Assembly: GCA_965217115.1 (NCBI GenBank) | Contig: OZ244239.1 | Location: 1,938,791 to 2,002,790, forward strand | Direction: 5' to 3' | Origin: Bdellovibrionales bacterium | GTDB lineage: Bacteria; Bdellovibrionota; Bdellovibrionia; Bdellovibrionales; CAYMLA01 | DNA: 64,000 bases | Shown here: in pieces, positions 3,326 to 64,000 of the stretch | Layout of the letters: every line of letters starts with the position of its first letter | Position numbering within the stretch: position 1 is the stretch's first letter | Program-made: the position numbers and the translations under genes | The notes under the pieces: generated by a model | Told to the model about the DNA's origin: nothing | Seen by the model: only the letters and a program-made list of their open reading frames with translations | Databases searched by the model: none

Positions 3326-4241
3326 GGGGCCTGAAAAGAAGGTTGAAGTTATTATTAAAAAATCGTGGGGGTCTCTACGAGAAATACCTAAGAGGACTTG
3401 GAAAGATATTGTTCACAAAGCTAAGGCTTGTATCCTATCTCAAGTGAGTAACGAACATTGTGACGCTTATCTTTTGTCAGAGTCTAGTTTGTTTGTGTAC
3501 AATGACCATTTTGTGATGATCACCTGTGGAACGACAACTCTGGTGGAAGCTGTTACGGAGTTTCTAAAAACAGTGCCAGTGGATAATATCGAGACTCTTA
3601 TCTATGAGCGTAAGAACGAGCATTTTCCCCATTACCAGAAGTCAAATTTTTTTGAAGACATATATAAATTAGAAAAAATCTTACCAGGAAAAGCATGGCA
3701 GTTTGGTGATGAAGACAACCATCACCTTCTATTATTCCAGATGGGCAGTTCGTATCAGCCTGAAGAGGATGATATGACCGTAGAGGTTTTAATGCATGGG
3801 ATTCAAGGGGAAGCTAAAACTTTTTTTAAAGATATACATCAGTCTAAAGAAAAAATAAAAAAATTAAAAATAGCGGATATTTTTTCTGGTTTCTTGGTAG
3901 ATGACCATTTGTTTGAGCCATTGGGTTATTCTTTGAATGCCATAAAAGAAAACTGGTATTACACAATTCATGTGACTCCAGAAGAACTAGGTTCCTATGT
4001 GAGCTTTGAGACTAATTATTTTTTACAAGAAAGCTTGCACGAGATTGTCGAAAAGGTTTTAGCGATATTTCAGCCAGAATCTTGTGATGTGATTGTTTTC
4101 CATAAAGAGCAGAGAGGTGTTGAGGATTTAAAAGGTTATCGTTTACGAAGTCACATCGAAGAATATTTAGGTGGATACAGTGTTTCATTTAAGCATTTTT
4201 ATCAACCACAGTTGGGGCCGAAAAGGGCATTTAGGGTTTAA
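3315..4241 (+). CDS. S-adenosylmethionine decarboxylase proenzyme, eukaryote-type (class 2)
   Basis: 308 aa. FFEGPEKKVEV at the N-terminus. DAYLLSESSLFVY...ITCGTT matches the human autoprocessing site YVLSESSMFV...KTCGTT. HVTPEELGSYVSFETN matches HITPEPEFSYVSFETN. The GTG start overlaps the stop of the upstream gene. Confidence 0.85.
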   Translation: MFFEGPEKKVEVIIKKSWGSLREIPKRTWKDIVHKAKACILSQVSNEHCDAYLLSESSLFVYNDHFVMITCGTTTLVEAVTEFLKTVPVDNIETLIYERKNEHFPHYQKSNFFEDIYKLEKILPGKAWQFGDEDNHHLLLFQMGSSYQPEEDDMTVEVLMHGIQGEAKTFFKDIHQSKEKIKKLKIADIFSGFLVDDHLFEPLGYSLNAIKENWYYTIHVTPEELGSYVSFETNYFLQESLHEIVEKVLAIFQPESCDVIVFHKEQRGVEDLKGYRLRSHIEEYLGGYSVSFKHFYQPQLGPKRAFRV

Positions 4242-4298
4242 TCTTCTATTAAAAATAAAAAAGGCCTCGATCTTAACGATCGAAGCCTAAGAAGATTA
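4235..4298. repeat. 64-bp repeat module, copy 1, containing a bidirectional terminator-like hairpin (4262-4288)
   Basis: 58/64 identical to 6957-7020 by hand alignment. Stem GGCCTCGATC / GATCGAAGCC with an A-run on one side. The single C-A mismatch becomes G-U on the minus-strand transcript. Lies between convergent genes. Confidence 0.75.
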
Positions 4299-6956: not shown

Positions 6957-7020
6957 GGTTTAATCTTCTATTAAAAACAAAAAAGGCCTCGATCTTAATA
7001 ATCGAAGCCTAAAGACATTA
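6957..7020. repeat. 64-bp repeat module, copy 2, with a terminator-like hairpin (about 6985-7009)
   Basis: 58/64 identical to 4235-4298. Same position relative to a convergent pair (plus-strand housekeeping gene, minus-strand small secreted-protein gene). Confidence 0.75.
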
Positions 7021-32611: not shown

Positions 32612-32645
32612 CACAAAAATGGCCTCCAAGGTAGGAAGCCATTTT
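32612..32645 (-). terminator. rho-independent terminator of the 32685..33095 gene
   Basis: Stem AATGGCCTCC / GGAAGCCATT. It pairs fully with one G-U on the minus-strand transcript and is followed there by a T-run. Confidence 0.7.
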
Positions 32646-32684: not shown

Positions 32685-33095
32685 CTAGTGAAGAATGAAC
32701 CCGTTTTTATCGTAAACTTGGTTTCCATCTTGAAAGCCATCTATATTTTTATTTGTTAATAAATTAACTTTTCCAGAAATAGGCCACTCAAAATCATAAA
32801 ACGACCCATATTGCCAAGCCACAAAGAAATATTCTATCACAGTAAAGATTCCATCTGGACCACATGTGTCCATTTGTGCTATTCTTGATTTTTGTGCAAT
32901 TGGCTGAACTTTAGACATTCTTATCGCTTCGTTATAGCATTCTTCAACTGTATTAAGCTCTTTGACTAAAGTTCTCGCGGATGTCTTTTCGATACAGCCG
33001 TATTCAACACTAATTTTCTTGAATTCGAGAAAACACCGTGAAGCAAAAGATGAAGTCGATACTAACAACAATAAACTTAATAAAATAATTTTCAT
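32685..33095 (-). CDS. small secreted protein, unknown function
   Basis: 136 aa. Signal peptide MKIILLSLLLLVSTSSFA and four Cys. Has its own terminator. Confidence 0.6.
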   Translation of the reverse strand: MKIILLSLLLLVSTSSFASRCFLEFKKISVEYGCIEKTSARTLVKELNTVEECYNEAIRMSKVQPIAQKSRIAQMDTCGPDGIFTVIEYFFVAWQYGSFYDFEWPISGKVNLLTNKNIDGFQDGNQVYDKNGFILH

Positions 33096-33247
33096 TTCAA
33101 TCTCCCTGTAGTTTAGATACTATTGCTATTGCCATTACTATTCCAAGATCAGGTCGAAATTAACAAAGGTTGAGTGTTTTTCTCTGCTCAGAAAATAGAC
33201 AGGCCTTATAAGAGAGACAAAAATTGTCATAATTTTGTTTTTCTGAG

Positions 33248-33271
33248 GGTTCTTTGTGATAAATAGTGGAA
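33248..33271. repeat. 24-nt perfect direct repeat, copy 2
   Basis: Identical to 32531-32554. It lies about 40 nt upstream of structured element A. Confidence 0.9.
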
Positions 33272-33311
33272 CTGTTCCCAAGAGATCCATTGACCCATTG
33301 ATTGAATACGG

Positions 33312-33531
33312 CCTTTTTTTCTAGAGTCTCTCCCAAAAGAATCCAGTTCTTTTCGGCGAGTTTGGCTTGGCGACTTCCATTGCATTTCCCTGCAATGGAA
33401 GGTGACAAACGGATGTTTGAGCAAGAAAAGGGCTGGATTCTTTTGGGAGAGACTCTAGAAAAAAAACGACTCATTAGAAAAAAACTGCCTCCACCATTGT
33501 TTGTCATATGTTTGTCATAAAGAATCCAGAT
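33312..33531. repeat. structured palindromic element, copy A (candidate ncRNA or MITE-like element)
   Basis: Perfect 26-bp inverted arms at 33321-33346 / 33433-33458, extended by T7/A8. Internal hairpins at 33374-33401 and 33406-33419. Confidence 0.8.
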
Positions 33532-33551
33532 AGTTCAAGAAAACTATAAGA

Positions 33552-33766
33552 GCCTTCTCCCTAGAATATCTCCCAAAAGAATCCAGTTCTTTTCGGCGAG
33601 TTTGGCTTGGCGACTTCCATTGCATTTCTTTGCAATGGGAGGTGACAAACGAATGTTTGAGCAAGAAAAGGGCTGGATTCTTTTGGGAGAGACTCTAGAA
33701 AAAAAACAGCTCATCAGAAAAAAACTGCCTCCACTATTGTTTGCCTGTTTGCCATAAAGAATTTCC
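33552..33766. repeat. structured palindromic element, copy B
   Basis: Same element, offset by exactly 240 bp through the core. A few substitutions, mostly in loops or giving G-U. The outer left arm is slightly degenerate. Confidence 0.8.
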
Positions 33767-33956
33767 ATTATTCCTTGTAGATGCCTAATAATGGCAATCT
33801 GTGCAGAAGCTAGACAGGTCGAAACCCCTCAAATGCCGATAAATTGATATCTGAGCTATTTTCCTAGGGGCATAAAATGTGTATTTTATACCTCTTGAAC
33901 CCCTTGAAGTTAACGATATCAACCAAATTTAAGGGAAGATAGAGGCTATAGATACA

Positions 33957-34742
33957 ATGAAAACACTATTTTCTCAGTACATTCAAAAAGAGTTACTTGA
34001 ACGTTGTCAGAGAAACCCTGCCTATTCTCTGCGTTCGTTAGGTAAGAGTTTGAGTGTGCCTCCTTCTAGCCTTTCTGAGTGGATGAGTGGCAAGAGAGCA
34101 CCTAAGATGGAACATGCAGAGAGCATCCTAAAACTATTAGAGTGTCCCCAAGAAAAAGTAAAAGAAATTCTTTGGGAAATTAAAATTTCAGATATTTCCA
34201 AAGAGTTGATGATCAAGGAGAATATAGAAAAAATTGAAGCAGAATTTGATTCTTCTAGACTAGAGAAAGATATTTTTAAAATGATTTCTAACTGGTATTG
34301 CTATGCCATTGTGAACCTTGTTGAGTTAGAAAATTTTGAATATAGCGTTAAATTTATAGTAAAAACTTTAGGTATTACTGAAGAAGAAGCTCAAGATGCT
34401 TTGAAGGTATTGCTTAATACTGGAATATTGGTAGAGGAGTCAGGAACCCTAAAGGCTAGCGGAAATAATTTATCTACACAAACAGGTGTTCCCGATCAAT
34501 CAATTAGAGATTTTCACAGACAGATATTATCTCTGGCTCAGGGAGCGTTAGGTCATGTGCCAGTTCAAGATAGAGATTTTACCAATATAATGATGCCCAT
34601 TAATGTTAAAAGTATTAATCAAGTAAAAAAAGAAATTACGACCTTTCGGCGTAAAATTTGTAAATTACTTGAGAACGGAGAGAAGACAGAGGTTTATAAT
34701 CTGTCAATACAGTTATTTCCTGTGACGGGGAGGAGTTCATGA
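33957..34742 (+). CDS. TIGR02147-like protein (N-terminal HTH, Fibrobacter/Bdellovibrio paralogous family)
   Basis: 261 aa. N-terminal YSLRSLGKSLSVPPSSLSEWMSGKRAP HTH-like segment. Overall layout is similar to 62589..63389. Confidence 0.6.
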   Translation: MKTLFSQYIQKELLERCQRNPAYSLRSLGKSLSVPPSSLSEWMSGKRAPKMEHAESILKLLECPQEKVKEILWEIKISDISKELMIKENIEKIEAEFDSSRLEKDIFKMISNWYCYAIVNLVELENFEYSVKFIVKTLGITEEEAQDALKVLLNTGILVEESGTLKASGNNLSTQTGVPDQSIRDFHRQILSLAQGALGHVPVQDRDFTNIMMPINVKSINQVKKEITTFRRKICKLLENGEKTEVYNLSIQLFPVTGRSS

Positions 34743-36301
34743 AGAGTGTATTTGTCTCTATTATTGTGATGGTTTTTGTTAACAGTGGATCATTGGCTAC
34801 GGAATATGTGGGTTTTCCAGATAGCGTCAATCTTTTGAACGGGTTTTATTTTTTAGATACTTTTGATGAAAGCTCAGAAGTTGAAAGAAAATGGAGGTCG
34901 AGATTATTGGGTGAAGATATTGATGATTATAAAAAAATTATTGATGCAATTGGGGTAGAGCAAATGTTGGGTACAGAGACGGGTAATGGCGGAGATGAAA
35001 TACGTGATTTCTTTATTCATGAAGCCATTAAATTAATGGCAGTTTTGGAGAAGCGGCTTGTTTTTCGTTTGTACTATGGCCAATTTATTTGGCCTATGGA
35101 TTTTTCTAAGAAAATTAATATTAAAAATATAAAACTGGCCAGTGAGTCTCCTCTTATTGATAATGGTGGTTCTGTTGTGAGTGCACTTGTACTTGATACT
35201 AAAAAGCAAGAAGATTTACGGTCATTGAAAAAATACACTGATGTCTCAAGCCCTTATCTAGATAGATATCTTATCTTAGATTCAAATATTTGGCGGGGGA
35301 AAATTAAAACTTATGGTAAAAGTCCTTTTCCAACACAGAGGCTCATCATCCATGAAATTTTACGTCTCAATAATGTCAAAGATGATAATTACATTGTGAC
35401 TGAACAGATAATCAAGCAAATGAGAACAAATGTGTCAAAGTTGCCAAATCCCTCTTATAAGATGCACATCGATAATTGGTTAAATCATCCAGATTTTAAA
35501 ATGAGTAAGTTGTCTAAAGTTAACCCTCATTTAGCAAAAGAAGTTTCTGACGATTTAATTCAATTGGATTTGGCAAGCCGTTTCAAAGAGTTAGTTTTTT
35601 TCCACATTGATGAAGGAAAATTGCGGGAGTATCATTTTCAAGGGAAAGGTGATTTATTAGAGAGTTTCTCCCATTTAATTAGACGGGCACAGAATTCCAT
35701 AGATTCTATTGAAATCGTGGAAAATAATATCGATAGGTATCAATATTCTATTGAACAAAGACTTTATTCAGCGCATCTTTTCTCAGATAGGCTAAGAAAT
35801 AATAAAATAAAGTTATTGAAAACTGTTTCGTTCTTATTTGATCAGTATTGGGGGACATTTTTAAAAATTTTCGAAACGATGAATAGAGATTCTCTTTTGA
35901 CAAGAAAAGGTGTTTTGTTTTGTGAGAATCAATTCTCTGCAGGAGACACTCAAAGGGTTCGTGTTCAATCTACTGGAGTAGGAAGTGATATTTTGAGGGT
36001 GATACTTACTCAGAAAACACGAGATCCTGTTGCACAAGTGATTGGGGGCAATTTTAGATTTGATAGATCTAATGCTAAGAATAATATCTATGGGCTAGTG
36101 AATTTAACGGGAGAGAGTCAAAAATCTAGAAATGGGGTAGATATGATCCTTCGTCTTAATCAGGAACTTCTTAAGGAAAAAGACAAGGTTCCTGCTCACT
36201 TGGTTATTTATAATTTTTTAAACTATAAAGACAGCACTATTCCCTTATTTTGCACTAATAAATCAGAGGGAGTCGATGTGACTCGTTTTCATACAAAATA
36301 A
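34739..36301 (+). CDS. large secreted protein, unknown function
   Basis: 520 aa with a signal peptide. ATGA overlap with the upstream HTH gene. No recognised catalytic motif. Two IHE(A/I) segments are present but there is no HExxH. Confidence 0.55.
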   Translation: MKSVFVSIIVMVFVNSGSLATEYVGFPDSVNLLNGFYFLDTFDESSEVERKWRSRLLGEDIDDYKKIIDAIGVEQMLGTETGNGGDEIRDFFIHEAIKLMAVLEKRLVFRLYYGQFIWPMDFSKKINIKNIKLASESPLIDNGGSVVSALVLDTKKQEDLRSLKKYTDVSSPYLDRYLILDSNIWRGKIKTYGKSPFPTQRLIIHEILRLNNVKDDNYIVTEQIIKQMRTNVSKLPNPSYKMHIDNWLNHPDFKMSKLSKVNPHLAKEVSDDLIQLDLASRFKELVFFHIDEGKLREYHFQGKGDLLESFSHLIRRAQNSIDSIEIVENNIDRYQYSIEQRLYSAHLFSDRLRNNKIKLLKTVSFLFDQYWGTFLKIFETMNRDSLLTRKGVLFCENQFSAGDTQRVRVQSTGVGSDILRVILTQKTRDPVAQVIGGNFRFDRSNAKNNIYGLVNLTGESQKSRNGVDMILRLNQELLKEKDKVPAHLVIYNFLNYKDSTIPLFCTNKSEGVDVTRFHTK

Positions 36302-61121: not shown

Positions 61122-61198
61122 GGCGGGGTAGCTCAGCTGGTTAGAGCACTGGAATCATAATCCAGGTGTCGGGAGTTCGAATCTCCCCCTCGCTACCA
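61122..61198 (+). tRNA. tRNA with anticodon CAT (elongator Met type, or Ile2 if lysidine-modified), CCA encoded
   Basis: Hand-folded cloverleaf. Acceptor GGCGGGG / CCTCGCT with two G-U pairs. D arm GCTC-AGCTGGTTA-GAGC. Anticodon arm CTGGA-ATCATAA-TCCAG. T arm GGGAG-TTCGAAT-CTCCC. Discriminator A plus CCA. It lacks the initiator features (C1xA72, GGG/CCC anticodon stem). Confidence 0.9.
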
Positions 61199-62588: not shown

Positions 62589-63389
62589 CTATTTCGAAAT
62601 AGGAAAGAAATTAATATTTAAGAAAGAAGCCTTATCTTTTTTAACTGAGTTTTTTGAAATCGAAATTACCTTTTGCTTAGCATCTTCAAGAATTTTCTCA
62701 ATCTCGGTCTGAGATTCCTTGTCATGGATAAGACAAAATGAATCGAATTTCCCACACTTTAATCCATTATCCATTTCGAGGTGCTTAGTAGCTCGCTCTA
62801 AAGCTGTTATGTATAGGCCTTCTGTATTTACCCCTGTTTTTAAAAAAACATCATTAAGAGATTTTTTAAAAATATTTAGCTCTCTAAGCTTTTTGATTGC
62901 ACCCTTTACTTCTTCTTCCGAATAGTCATCTCTTAGACGTGCAAAAATCCAATCAAACTTAAGCTTCGAGTCTTTTAACCCTAAAAGAGTATAGATTTCC
63001 CAAGTCAAAATACTCTTGAAGATTGATTCATCTCCATCTTTATATTCATTGGGAACTAGAAGTTTAATGTCTTTTCTAAATCTCTCAAAGTTAAGCTTTA
63101 CATCTTTATCTTCGGAGTTATCTTTGAGAACCATCATAAAGAAGTAGGAACTTTCTATTTCATTGAGCTTTATCTTCTCAGCTAGCTTGGCAGCCTTTTC
63201 TATACTGATTTTTCGACGTCCAGAAACGACTTGCTTTAAATAAGTCTCTGAGCCGTTAATTAAACCAGAGAAATAGCTATAAGAGTACTTGGTGTCTTTA
63301 TTTTTTAAAGCACCAATATACTCTTTTATAAAGCCTCTGTAATCACTGTAATTAAAAATTGGTACTCTAGTGTCCAACACTTCCAACAT
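62589..63389 (-). CDS. TIGR02147-like protein (N-terminal HTH), second paralog
   Basis: 266 aa. YSDYRGFIKEY...YSYFSGLINGSETYLKQVVSGRRKISIEKAAKLAEKIKLNEIESSYFFMMV fits the family pattern as I recall it. Confidence 0.65.
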   Translation of the reverse strand: MLEVLDTRVPIFNYSDYRGFIKEYIGALKNKDTKYSYSYFSGLINGSETYLKQVVSGRRKISIEKAAKLAEKIKLNEIESSYFFMMVLKDNSEDKDVKLNFERFRKDIKLLVPNEYKDGDESIFKSILTWEIYTLLGLKDSKLKFDWIFARLRDDYSEEEVKGAIKKLRELNIFKKSLNDVFLKTGVNTEGLYITALERATKHLEMDNGLKCGKFDSFCLIHDKESQTEIEKILEDAKQKVISISKNSVKKDKASFLNINFFPISK

Positions 63390-63774: not shown

Positions 63775-63783
63775 AAAACCTCC

Positions 63784-63865
63784 TAAAGTTCTTATATTTT
63801 AAGCATCTTAGAAATTCAACTTCTTAAAGTTCTTATATTTTAAGCATCTTAGAAGTTCAACTTCT
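63784..63865 (-). promoter_or_regulatory. 41-bp tandem duplication carrying two sigma70-like promoter modules
   Basis: Units at 63784-63824 and 63825-63865 differ at one base. On the minus strand each reads TTGAA(T/C)-17 nt-TATAAG. Proximal -35 is 63814-63819 and -10 is 63791-63796. Distal -35 is 63855-63860 and -10 is 63832-63837. Confidence 0.55.
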
Positions 63866-64000
63866 CAAAATATTTAACGGGCTCAAAATGAACCCTTAGG
63901 CTTTATGATCTGTGAACGTAAGTTTTATTTATTATATTGAGATCGCTTAGATAAAAAGAAATCTAATGAAAAATGGTTTCTCACCAACCACTGTTCATTA

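Follow-up and report, generated by a model that had tools for sequence, protein, structure and literature searches.

Type I toxin–antitoxin loci classically look like dispersed and tandem intergenic repeats of 150–500 bp without a transposase; the repeats of the Sib/Ibs ('QUAD') and Ldr/Rdl ('LDR') kinds, both tandem and dispersed, encode a strongly structured RNA that carries a short ORF behind a sequestered SD. Bacterial MITEs are defined by terminal inverted repeats (TIRs), a core, the absence of a transposase and a long RNA hairpin (PMC3184786). IS630/Tc1/mariner elements duplicate TA (PMC2170065), and IS630 prefers a TA within CTAG, going by the title of Tenzen & Ohtsubo (1991) as cited in PMC2170065, while the Stowaway end is printed as TACTCCCTCCGTCCCAGAAAGAAG in PMC3660474. 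Correia elements give rise to a transcript that forms a long hairpin bound or cleaved by RNase III, and can supply promoters (PMC2649163); BOX elements have an asymmetric, modular build and are sometimes arrayed in tandem (PMC3184786; PMC3049150).

In the window, by which is meant the whole 64-kb stretch of DNA that was analysed, two units of a repeat of ~210–225 nt lie head to tail between divergent genes (Table 1). The unit is smaller than the ~400 bp limit for MITEs (PMC3184786), has no transposase gene and contains ORFs that are unconserved read-throughs only. Both belong to a small, near-identical and genome-specific family of interspersed repeats; the likeliest reading of this family, at about even odds in our judgement, is a lineage-restricted, MITE-like non-autonomous mobile element. 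The first-pass annotation had offered either a novel noncoding RNA or a MITE-like element: the dispersed copies found here favour the latter and weaken the former, which nevertheless is still a rival.

Table 1. Coordinates of the repeat units, their parts and the adjacent genes, numbered from the first letter of the window.
Feature	Position	Strand	Description
Copy A of the repeat unit	33306..33529	+	Left T-run, palindromic module, tail; direct repeat D1, alignment A1, CM match
Copy B of the repeat unit	33546..33766	+	Head-to-tail with copy A; left T-run and outer arm decayed
Copy A left arm	33314..33354	none	T7, CTAG, 22-nt perfect arm, inner 8 nt; inverted repeat I1
Copy A right arm	33425..33466	none	Inner 8 nt, 22-nt perfect arm, CTAG, A8; 100% identical in B
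Copy B left arm	33554..33594	none	Outer 15 nt degenerate (CTTCTCC CTAGAATA)
Copy B right arm	33665..33706	none	
Core of copy A	33355..33424	+	Three plus-strand hairpins; MFE and centroid folds
CTAG at the left end of copy A's perfect palindrome	33321..33324	none	Further CTAG at 33455-33458, 33561-33564, 33695-33698
Tail of copy A	33467..33529	+	Second arm-end copy GACTCATTAGAAAAAAAC (33468-85), GCCTCC (33487-92), TGTTTGTCATA x2 (33498-33519), end ...CATAAAGAAT(CCAG)
Tail of copy B	33707..33766	+	Shortened repeats (TGTTTGCC x2)
35-codon ORF of copy A	33413..33520	+	Copy B counterpart 33653-33757, 34 codons
P0001, 104-aa ORF of the public annotation	33160..33474	-	Spans copy A, probably spurious; relatives are translations of other copies only
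Left neighbour, 136-aa protein	32685..33095	-	Signal-peptide-like N-terminus; no Pfam family; terminator 32616-32645
Right neighbours	33957..36301	+	HTH plus DUF4423 protein (33957-34742); overlapping 520-aa protein without family (34739-36301)

The two copies form a direct repeat (33306-33503 and 33546-33743) with 91% identity and a spacing of 240 bp, which is the offset first reported. Similarity drops sharply at the right boundary of the unit, and the left-side flanks of A and B diverge. Conservation is uneven within the repeat: over 33330-33466 only four of the 137 positions differ (33389, 33390, 33399 and 33412, exactly those listed beforehand), against 14 of the 62 outside this core (Fisher p = 2.7e-5); the core is 5–10 times more conserved than the tail and flank. 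Three of the four core differences are confined to the ten nucleotides in hairpin loops (hypergeometric p = 0.0011), while the fourth converts an A-U pair into G-U. Quasi-palindrome template-switch repair can likewise confine differences to loops.

The arms of copy A (33314-33354 and 33425-33465) are 41 nt long and 95% complementary, and contain each of the components originally described, namely a perfect 26-bp inverted repeat (33321-33346/33433-33458), its outward extension by T7/A8 and, on the inner side, eight more base pairs, two of them U-G. The left outer arm and T-run of copy B carry six uncompensated mismatches. Folding of the core of copy A yields hairpins at 33357-33369 (weak, 5 bp), 33374-33401 (11 bp) and 33402-33422 (5+2 bp, of which 33406-33419 is the 5-bp hairpin); the 11-bp and 5-bp hairpins of the first-pass annotation are thereby reproduced, whereas the stretch GGCGAGTTTGGCTTGGCGA, which it had called fully conserved and unpaired, keeps its sequence but is capable of forming the weak 5-bp hairpin and is thus not strictly unpaired.

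The complete units fold far beyond chance, copy A at -98.1 kcal/mol (z = -10.0) and copy B at -80.6 kcal/mol (z = -5.7), and the minus strand folds nearly as well (z = -9.2). For the 86-nt stretch 33347-33432, comprising the core and the inner 8 nt of each arm, folding in isolation gives z = -3.9 (plus strand) and z = -3.2 (minus strand). In both copies the plus strand has an advantage of 10–12 kcal/mol (-93.7 versus -81.7 and -76.3 versus -66.7 kcal/mol), which stems from five or six G-U pairs, because the U-G and G-U pairs become A-C mismatches on the minus strand. The CM scores differ in the same direction, with 178 and 164 bits on the plus strand versus 91 and 74 on the minus strand for copies A and B, respectively. 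The pattern had been taken as that of a conserved RNA fold, and in respect of the conserved core and the plus-strand G-U pairs this holds; yet among the 65 pairs compared between A and B, a comparison of two DNA sequences only and of very low power, none is changed on both sides, one passes from A-U to G-U and six, all in the outer stem, are broken in B.

A simple consensus scan gave no convincing sigma-70-like promoter at the units, and a terminator scan gave no intrinsic terminator on either strand of 33000-34050. An intrinsic or bidirectional terminator was rejected on the latter result and on the arrangement of the runs, since on both strands the stem comes after the T-run and before the A-run, which is the opposite of the layout of such terminators. 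A sigma-54 promoter in TGGCGACTTCCATTGCA (33368-84) was rejected as well, its GG-GC spacing being 1 nt too long and the consensus not being enriched in the window.

Outside the right inverted repeat, all four known copies possess an asymmetric tail of 60–70 nt, in which the number of TGTTTGTCATA repeats varies from one to three. The GCCTCC reported for each tail is indeed present in copies A and B (33487-92 and 33727-32), but its interpretation as a conserved 'anti-SD' does not hold, GGCTCC taking its place in the two further copies. Similarly, a third AAAGAATCCAG does occur in copy A (33519-29), whereas the switch-like pairing proposed for it was rejected: the sequence has degenerated in B, only its AAAGAAT part persists in the other copies, and a pairing of 11 bp is no match for one of 41 bp. 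A Pho-box-like TTGTCAT-N4-TTGTCAT in tail A was discarded as a conserved site, the period being 8 in B and the repeat number one to three, and an inverted tail copy to the left of copy A (33162-85 and 33247-75) was unconvincing (alignment p ~0.03–0.06 before multiple testing).

An exhaustive HMMER search revealed two called ORFs, P0027 and P0029, that translate further copies on the same 2,170,531-bp contig, outside the window. Both match the core, right arm and tail at 91–100% and then run into unrelated flank. At the amino-acid level, copy A differs from copy C at one of 40 codons and copy B from copy D at none of 24; since 79% of substitutions are visible at this level, the cores are therefore ~99% identical. 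The copy count is a lower bound, with at least four copies at no fewer than three loci on the one 2.17-Mb contig. Within the window, a CM search found only A and B, and no other arm-like sequence is present; word-indexed protein searches with translated frames returned P0001 only, or nothing. The near-identity of dispersed copies with abruptly diverging flanks looks like the outcome of recent spread, as opposed to old paralogs. Many dispersed copies with target-site duplications and no transcript had been named in the first-pass annotation as the mark of a plain MITE or REP element: at least two further near-identical copies were found, while the evidence on target-site duplication is only consistent with it.

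The perfect palindromes of copies A and B both have the borders C-TA...TA-G, and CTAG is under-represented in the window (135 found versus 188 expected). The central TA of CTAG is consistent with a target-site duplication, for which it is a candidate; it is, however, inseparable from the palindromic CTAG, which continues into T7/A8, and this leaves the duplication ambiguous. A TA after the end of the tail is missing in three of the four copies. The best Rfam similarity in the region is MIR1862, which matches both arms below threshold (43 bits, E = 4.5e-7, gathering score 84) and whose consensus begins UA-CUCCCUCCGUCCCAAAAUAAA, equal to the Stowaway end. The unit is short and free of a transposase gene, has inverted repeats with a long hairpin and exists in multiple dispersed copies, in agreement with what defines a MITE (PMC3184786). 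The flanking TA within CTAG, as preferred by IS630, the resemblance of the arms to Stowaway ends, the decay of the left arm of copy B, and the insertion-like distribution of the copies all argue for the MITE-like reading, as do the absence of a convincing promoter, a terminator and compensatory changes in the analyses above. A strong SD and an ATG, located ~60 nt inward of the left arm, are followed by no conserved peptide, and may possibly be a relic of the transposase start of a parent IS. On the other hand, the tail in all four copies means that the unit is not simply bounded by TIRs, no transposase was seen in the 64-kb window and no matching autonomous element is known, the lower bound of four copies is a low number, and the loop-clustered differences, conserved core and plus-favouring G-U pairs would equally suit a constrained RNA.

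The mobility, transposase family and effect on neighbours that we infer for a MITE-like element would be as follows. A palindromic module of ~130 nt (GAGTCTCTCCCAAAAGAATCCAG ... CTGGATTCTTTTGGGAGAGACTC) would lie between two TA dinucleotides inside CTAG, in a T-run/A-run context, and be followed by the 60–70-nt tail with the second arm-end copy, the slippage-prone TGTTTGTCATA repeat and an end at CATAAAGAAT. The arms would be recognized, and the unit spread, by a transposase, perhaps an IS630/Tc1-mariner one, whose gene lies in another part of the genome, and the head-to-tail pair may have arisen from a second insertion beside the first or from local duplication. The predicted empty site at this locus is GGCCTTTTTTTC-TA-GAAAAAAAACGACTC. 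Read-through from either flanking gene would produce an RNA folding into a perfect duplex of 20–41 bp, the kind of substrate by which Correia elements affect neighbouring mRNAs through RNase III.

The distribution outside the genome bears on the same question. As the first-pass annotation had presumed, the element corresponds to no known RNA family, none of the 4227 Rfam models (including MIR1862, Yfr17, Y RNA, retrons and riboswitches) reaching its gathering threshold within it; a Y RNA identity was rejected, the Rfam scan remaining below threshold, and a permissive scan yielded no genuine match either. The only gathering-level match in the window is a tRNA at 61122-61195. Exact searches with a 19-mer of the core in 596 Gb of genomes, a set that evidently excludes the source genome, found no related match: the 18 genome matches all encode the motif GEFGLA, for example in a Clp-like gene in Chloroflexota, and have no arms. 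In the JGI metagenomes the translated-seed scan was empty and the two-arm pattern retrieved one unrelated terminator-like hairpin (L023), and in IMG/VR, plasmids and phages only chance single-arm or core 17–19-mers were found. In the three nearest relatives (44–45% identity), the region upstream of the gene pair with DUF4423 is without the element.

Among the ORFs scanned up to ~15 kb to the left and right of the repeat, none has a transposase, integrase, reverse transcriptase or cas domain, in line with what had been noted for the immediate surroundings. The pair formed by the DUF4423 gene and a ~500-aa gene is kept in synteny in distant relatives without the element, which is also missing from a second DUF4423 paralog (62589-63389). 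A retron msr-msd was rejected, given that the downstream genes encode the HTH-DUF4423 and 520-aa proteins and that the scanned ORFs include no reverse transcriptase. The window also encodes SecG and Tpi proteins. Cumulative GC skew runs monotonically from one end of the window to the other. Identification as oriC or dif was likewise rejected.

The principal competitor of the MITE-like reading is a multi-copy, lineage-specific family of structured sRNAs expressed from the plus strand, each unit being a gene, which we consider unlikely. The long stem would close a three-hairpin head acting on targets via the conserved single-stranded stretch or the loops, the tail would be the 3' region and the tandem pair would be sibling sRNA genes. 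The better plus-strand fold of both copies through G-U pairs and the far higher plus-strand CM scores agree with this idea, as do the conserved core and the placement of its four differences, three in loops and one turning A-U to G-U, although loop-only differences could also be produced by quasi-palindrome template-switch repair. An oriented, asymmetric unit with its tail kept in four of four copies is more readily understood as a gene than as a transposon bounded by TIRs, and by inspection TAGAGT/TAGAAT (33322/33562) could be a -10 box with a start near 33334, the onset of the invariant block. However, no promoter at the units passes the scan and no intrinsic terminator is present, whereas the neighbouring genes have canonical ones and the genome uses such terminators (e.g. 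32616-32645). Moreover, a perfect duplex of 26–41 bp is atypical for bacterial sRNAs and typical of TIRs, covariation is zero with six stem pairs broken in copy B, the dispersed ~99% identical copies with abrupt flank divergence appear recently spread, and the searches of other genomes returned no homolog, so that cross-species conservation is nil.

Alternatively, the unit could be a structured mRNA for a micro-ORF, in the manner of a type I toxin–antitoxin or leader-peptide system, that was duplicated and dispersed as were the Sib/Ibs (QUAD) and Ldr (LDR) repeats in Escherichia coli; this appears very improbable. The candidate SD (GGAAGGTGA at 33397-33405, GGGAGGTGA in B) would be sequestered in the 3' arm of the 11-bp hairpin with the ATG in the next hairpin, and the arms would provide a 5'–3' fold-back. 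Indeed, both copies have a strong SD 7–10 nt ahead of the ATG (33413/33653), P0029 begins exactly at this ATG, codons 1 to 24 show little or no variation across the four copies, the tails of A and B differ by an indel of 3 nt with the stop preserved, and tandem plus dispersed intergenic repeats without a transposase resemble type I loci. The N-terminal conservation is nevertheless explained by the conserved arm DNA, and the four copies do not agree in the sequence, frame or length (34, 35, ~55 and 70 aa) of their C-terminal halves. The peptide is charged and lacks a transmembrane segment, the tail substitutions between A and B within the ORF are by inspection ~1 synonymous to 4–5 non-synonymous, the supposed anti-SD reads GGCTCC in two copies and protein searches gave no homolog; judging from these comparisons, the 35-codon ORF is probably not a conserved gene. 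Taken more broadly, the proposition that the repeat is a lineage-specific, multi-copy plus-strand RNA, either an sRNA family or a self-sequestering micro-ORF mRNA, with a three-hairpin head under selection and possibly domesticated from a mobile element, seems doubtful.

A site acting at the DNA level, be it an inverton bounded by the 26-bp inverted repeats, an attC-like site or a binding platform for the HTH-DUF4423 protein, has in its favour the perfect inverted repeats around a short core between divergent genes and the XRE-type HTH protein encoded next door, but is scarcely credible given that no recombinase is found in the ORFs scanned within ~15 kb, that the DUF4423 paralog and the DUF4423 loci of relatives are without the element, that copies occur at other loci, that arms 70–86 bp apart are not operator-like, and that an integron attC site was rejected, neither RYYYAAC (R'') nor GTTRRRY (R') being present anywhere in 33300-33800.

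If the repeat is MITE-like, it explains at least three spurious 'hypothetical proteins' (P0001, P0027 and P0029), its practical value being in annotation, and marks a recently active or homogenized repeat in an otherwise poorly sampled lineage, the neighbouring protein being only ~45% identical to that of the nearest relatives; strains could be told apart by its variable-repeat tail. Transcription, if it occurs, would yield a 41-bp duplex that could modulate the divergent neighbours in the manner of Correia elements. Were the units an RNA gene family instead, they would represent a new structured RNA class that Rfam lacks, present several times per genome in a DUF4423-rich, deeply branching (Bdellovibrio-like) lineage, and one hard to study without homologs.

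Among the described systems, type I toxin–antitoxin loci and sibling sRNA arrays are similar in being tandem and dispersed intergenic repeats without a transposase, but differ in that the present unit has no conserved hydrophobic peptide, a varying ORF end and neither promoter nor terminator. ERIC, RUP, BOX and bcr1-type repeats are likewise small (100–200 bp), intergenic and noncoding with stable RNA folds, although they have no sequence relation to the unit, whose copy number is low and whose modules, a palindrome and a VNTR tail, are different. Stowaway and IS630-Tc1-mariner MITEs, including plant MIR1862 (RF04136), share a TA-flanked palindrome and C/T-rich arms with TCCCAAAA-GAA, and MIR1862 matches both arms at a sub-threshold 43 bits versus a gathering score of 84; here, however, the arm has 2 nt fewer from TA to CCCAAAA, the TA is inseparable from the palindrome, and the genome is bacterial with no cognate transposase seen. 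Correia elements (CREE/NEMIS) of Neisseria have no sequence similarity to the unit, number hundreds of copies as opposed to at least four and do not share its asymmetric 60–70-nt tail; the likeness consists in multi-copy intergenic elements of ~100–155 bp that end in TA and whose conserved core is enclosed by 26-bp terminal inverted repeats.

The region 33306-33766 contains two head-to-tail units, copies A and B, whose perfect palindromes are both edged by C-TA...TA-G. All positions listed for this tandem pair in the first-pass annotation proved correct upon re-checking, and the observation stands. The differences between the copies are unevenly distributed (Fisher p = 2.7e-5 for the conserved block versus the remaining segments), and the two sides are not equally conserved: A and B have identical right outer arms and A8 runs, and the left outer arm and T-run of copy B carry six changes, each of which merely breaks pairs.

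Features of the repeat units and of their surroundings
Feature	Position	Remarks
Unit, copy A	33306-33503	direct repeat, head-to-tail with B, offset exactly 240 bp
Unit, copy B	33546-33743	direct repeat, 91% identical to copy A
Arms, copy A	33314-33354 and 33425-33465	41 nt, 95% complementary
Arm parts, copy A		T7/A8 runs; perfect 26-mer CTAGAGTCTCTCCCAAAAGAATCCAG and complement; inner 8-bp stretch (two pairs U-G)
Core hairpins, copy A, plus strand (folding)	33357-69; 33374-33401; 33402-22	weak; 11 bp; 
Second arm-end copy GACTCATTAGAAAAAAAC	33468-85	start of tail outside right repeat
Left flank and T-run	33306-33320	7/15 differ, A versus B
Left outer arm	33321-33329	2/9 differ
Conserved block	33330-33466	4/137 differ
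Tail	33467-33504	5/38 differ, then 3-nt indel
Left neighbour	32685-33095	minus strand; 136-aa secreted-looking protein
Terminator of left neighbour	32616-45	canonical
Right neighbour, HTH-DUF4423 gene	33957-34742	overlaps 520-aa gene without family
DUF4423 two-gene module, window	33957-36301	
DUF4423 two-gene module, L020	10001-12219	distant relative
DUF4423 two-gene module, L021	1425-3730	distant relative
DUF4423 two-gene module, L022	223-2141	distant relative

A word-indexed protein search with translated frames returned only P0001, an ORF annotated on the minus strand across copy A. When the plus-strand read-through ORF served as query, exhaustive HMMER searching added P0027 (72 aa) and P0029 (70 aa). 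Although they have exact runs of 40 residues in common with the query, the word-indexed search had missed these two proteins, and its negatives do not equate to absence. Both are encoded on the same 2,170,531-bp NCBI/ENA contig as P0001 and P0002, neither of them in the window, and in tblastn against the window their element-derived parts align at 91-100% while their C-terminal flanks match nothing there. Since these proteins align to the element but are encoded outside the window, their sequences place at least two further copies, C and D, elsewhere in the genome. The search for dispersed copies proposed in the first-pass annotation is partly answered by these protein matches on one contig, with a total of at least four copies at at least three loci. 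Over 40 codons, C and A are separated by a single residue, and over 24 codons D and B are the same at the protein level; because 79% of substitutions in that frame would show, the cores are estimated to be ~99% identical. The tail is present in all four copies, similarity ending straight after CATAAAGAAT; the number of TGTTTGTCATA repeats is one in D, two in each of A and B, and three in C. GCCTCC reads GGCTCC in C and D, and the short ORF from ATG 33413 ends differently in each copy. As a result of this four-copy comparison, neither the anti-SD role suggested earlier for GCCTCC, nor the switch built on a third AAAGAATCCAG, nor a conserved peptide from ATG 33413 is supported.

An Rfam scan of the whole window brought only a tRNA to threshold, which agrees with the first-pass annotation, where the element was not recognised as any known RNA family. 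MIR1862 is a family of plant miRNA precursors. It was the best match in a permissive scan (43 bits versus a gathering score of 84, on both strands), covering the arms of the element. Its consensus UA-CUCCCUCCGUCCCAAAAUAAA is the end of Stowaway MITEs, given in PMC3660474 as TACTCCCTCCGTCCCAGAAAGAAG; the similarity is a lead on the type of arm rather than family membership. The core 19-mer has 18 genome matches, all through the unrelated coding motif GEFGLA; most are explained by a conserved Clp-ATPase-like gene, encoding ...IQNEIEDRLSDGILTGEFGLASIVRIEVDEDGG, that carries the exact 19-mer GGCGAGTTTGGCTTGGCGA (L001, L002, L008 and L015-L017, Chloroflexota/Phototrophicaceae MAGs). Metagenome, viral, plasmid and phage searches returned nothing related to the element. 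P0028, a 'low quality' Vespula maculifrons protein (KAL2726356.1, 1866 aa) built of ~54-aa repeats (...GPVFLGATLSEKKIVKEKFFFPLFPL...), aligns in nine weak stretches (34% identity, summed E = 2e-15) with the translation of the right arm, A-run and tail; this match is probably compositional, from poly-A/poly-T translation, but could alternatively reflect a Tc1/mariner-type repeat with similar ends.

Divergent genes leave a gap of 860 bp, in which the element lies. The HTH-DUF4423 gene of the window, like that of each of three distant relatives, has behind it an overlapping gene of ~480-520 aa without a Pfam family, and the pair is a conserved two-gene module. Identity to the DUF4423 neighbour is just 44-45% in its nearest relatives, which retain the pair; the element is absent from the short regions upstream of their pairs, and a covariance model of the palindrome found only the two window copies and none in the relatives' loci. 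Upstream of the DUF4423 gene, L021 carries an A/T hairpin (1303-1331, CTCTAAAAAAAA-TGTCCAC-TTTTTTTAGAG), with ends like the CTCTAG-A8 of the element, and a well-spaced sigma-54-like TGGCATATTAATTGCA (1398-1413) ~20 nt ahead of the ATG; neither feature occurs in L020 or L022. A further DUF4423 paralog, a weak one (E = 6e-6, under the Pfam cut-off), lies at 62589-63389 on the minus strand, with a 41-nt tandem repeat (63777-63869, 2.3 copies, 92% matches), dissimilar to the element, ~400 bp upstream.

Ordinary chromosomal genes fill the surrounding 35 kb (AcrB-type efflux, ABC transporter, GHMP kinase, SecG, Tmk, HolB, TatD and Gap-Pgk-Tpi), and among the ORFs scanned there for domains were no transposase, integrase, RT or cas domains, in agreement with the first reading. 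Across the 64 kb the GC skew is positive, its cumulative curve climbing near-monotonically with a dip only in the last 2 kb, and the plus strand carries most of the genes; the window is therefore probably the leading strand of one replichore. CTAG is under-represented (135 observed versus 188 +/- 13 expected). A 64-nt direct repeat (4235-4298 and 6957-7020, 91% identical, 2.7 kb apart) forms a G+C-rich hairpin adjoining an A-run (AAAAAAGGCCTCGATC...GATCGAAGCCT), like a minus-strand terminator, and may represent either another family of small repeats or the duplicated end of a gene.

The near-identical dispersed copies with sharp boundaries, the long near-perfect inverted repeats, the lack of conserved coding capacity and gene-like signals and the absence from all other sequence collections searched indicate a small interspersed repeat that is probably mobile. 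For the fuller description, a genome-specific, MITE-like repeat (as defined in PMC3184786) found here as a tandem pair, the chances are even.

A multi-copy family of plus-strand sRNAs is an unlikely alternative. Copy A (225 nt) folds at -98.1 kcal/mol (z = -10.0) on the plus and -90.1 kcal/mol (z = -9.2) on the minus strand, and copy B (225 nt) at -80.6 (z = -5.7) and -76.7 kcal/mol (z = -5.0); the corresponding values for the 153-nt palindromes are -93.7 and -81.7 kcal/mol in A and -76.3 and -66.7 kcal/mol in B. This consistent G-U bias toward the plus strand, the well conserved three-hairpin head and the bias of A/B differences to loops keep this reading alive, three of the four block differences lying within ten hairpin-loop nucleotides (p = 0.0011) and the fourth turning A-U into G-U; however, quasi-palindrome template-switch repair or gene conversion could yield the same pattern. 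Double-sided pair changes between A and B number zero, a comparison to which two sequences lend nearly no power, so that covariation is not refuted by it. The promoter scan gave no site at either unit; its one plus-strand match of 9 of 12 (TAGACA-17-AAAAAT, 33196-33224), ahead of copy A, does not exceed what shuffled sequence yields. No terminator was found in 33000-34050; the element hairpin was rejected as one because on either strand the stem has the T-run ahead of it and the A-run behind it. A strong SD and ATG lie ~60 nt inside the left arm without a conserved protein behind them, and a structured micro-ORF mRNA, type I TA-like, appears improbable. A DNA-level site is the least credible proposal. 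A share of the probability close to that of the sRNA family is assigned to none of these four readings.

If the element is a MITE-like repeat, the SD and ATG could be a relic of a parent transposase start. TA is duplicated by IS630/Tc1/mariner elements (PMC2170065), and IS630 prefers TA within CTAG according to the title of Tenzen & Ohtsubo (1991) in the reference list of that paper. The asymmetry of the unit, in which every copy is accompanied by 60-70 nt of tail beyond the right repeat, the inseparability of TA from the palindrome, the lack of a visible transposase and the mere four copies known fit this reading poorly. Were the element co-transcribed with a neighbour, its RNA would hold a 20-41-bp perfect duplex; the Correia elements of Neisseria, according to PMC2649163, affect adjacent genes via such duplexes through RNase III, and through outward promoters.
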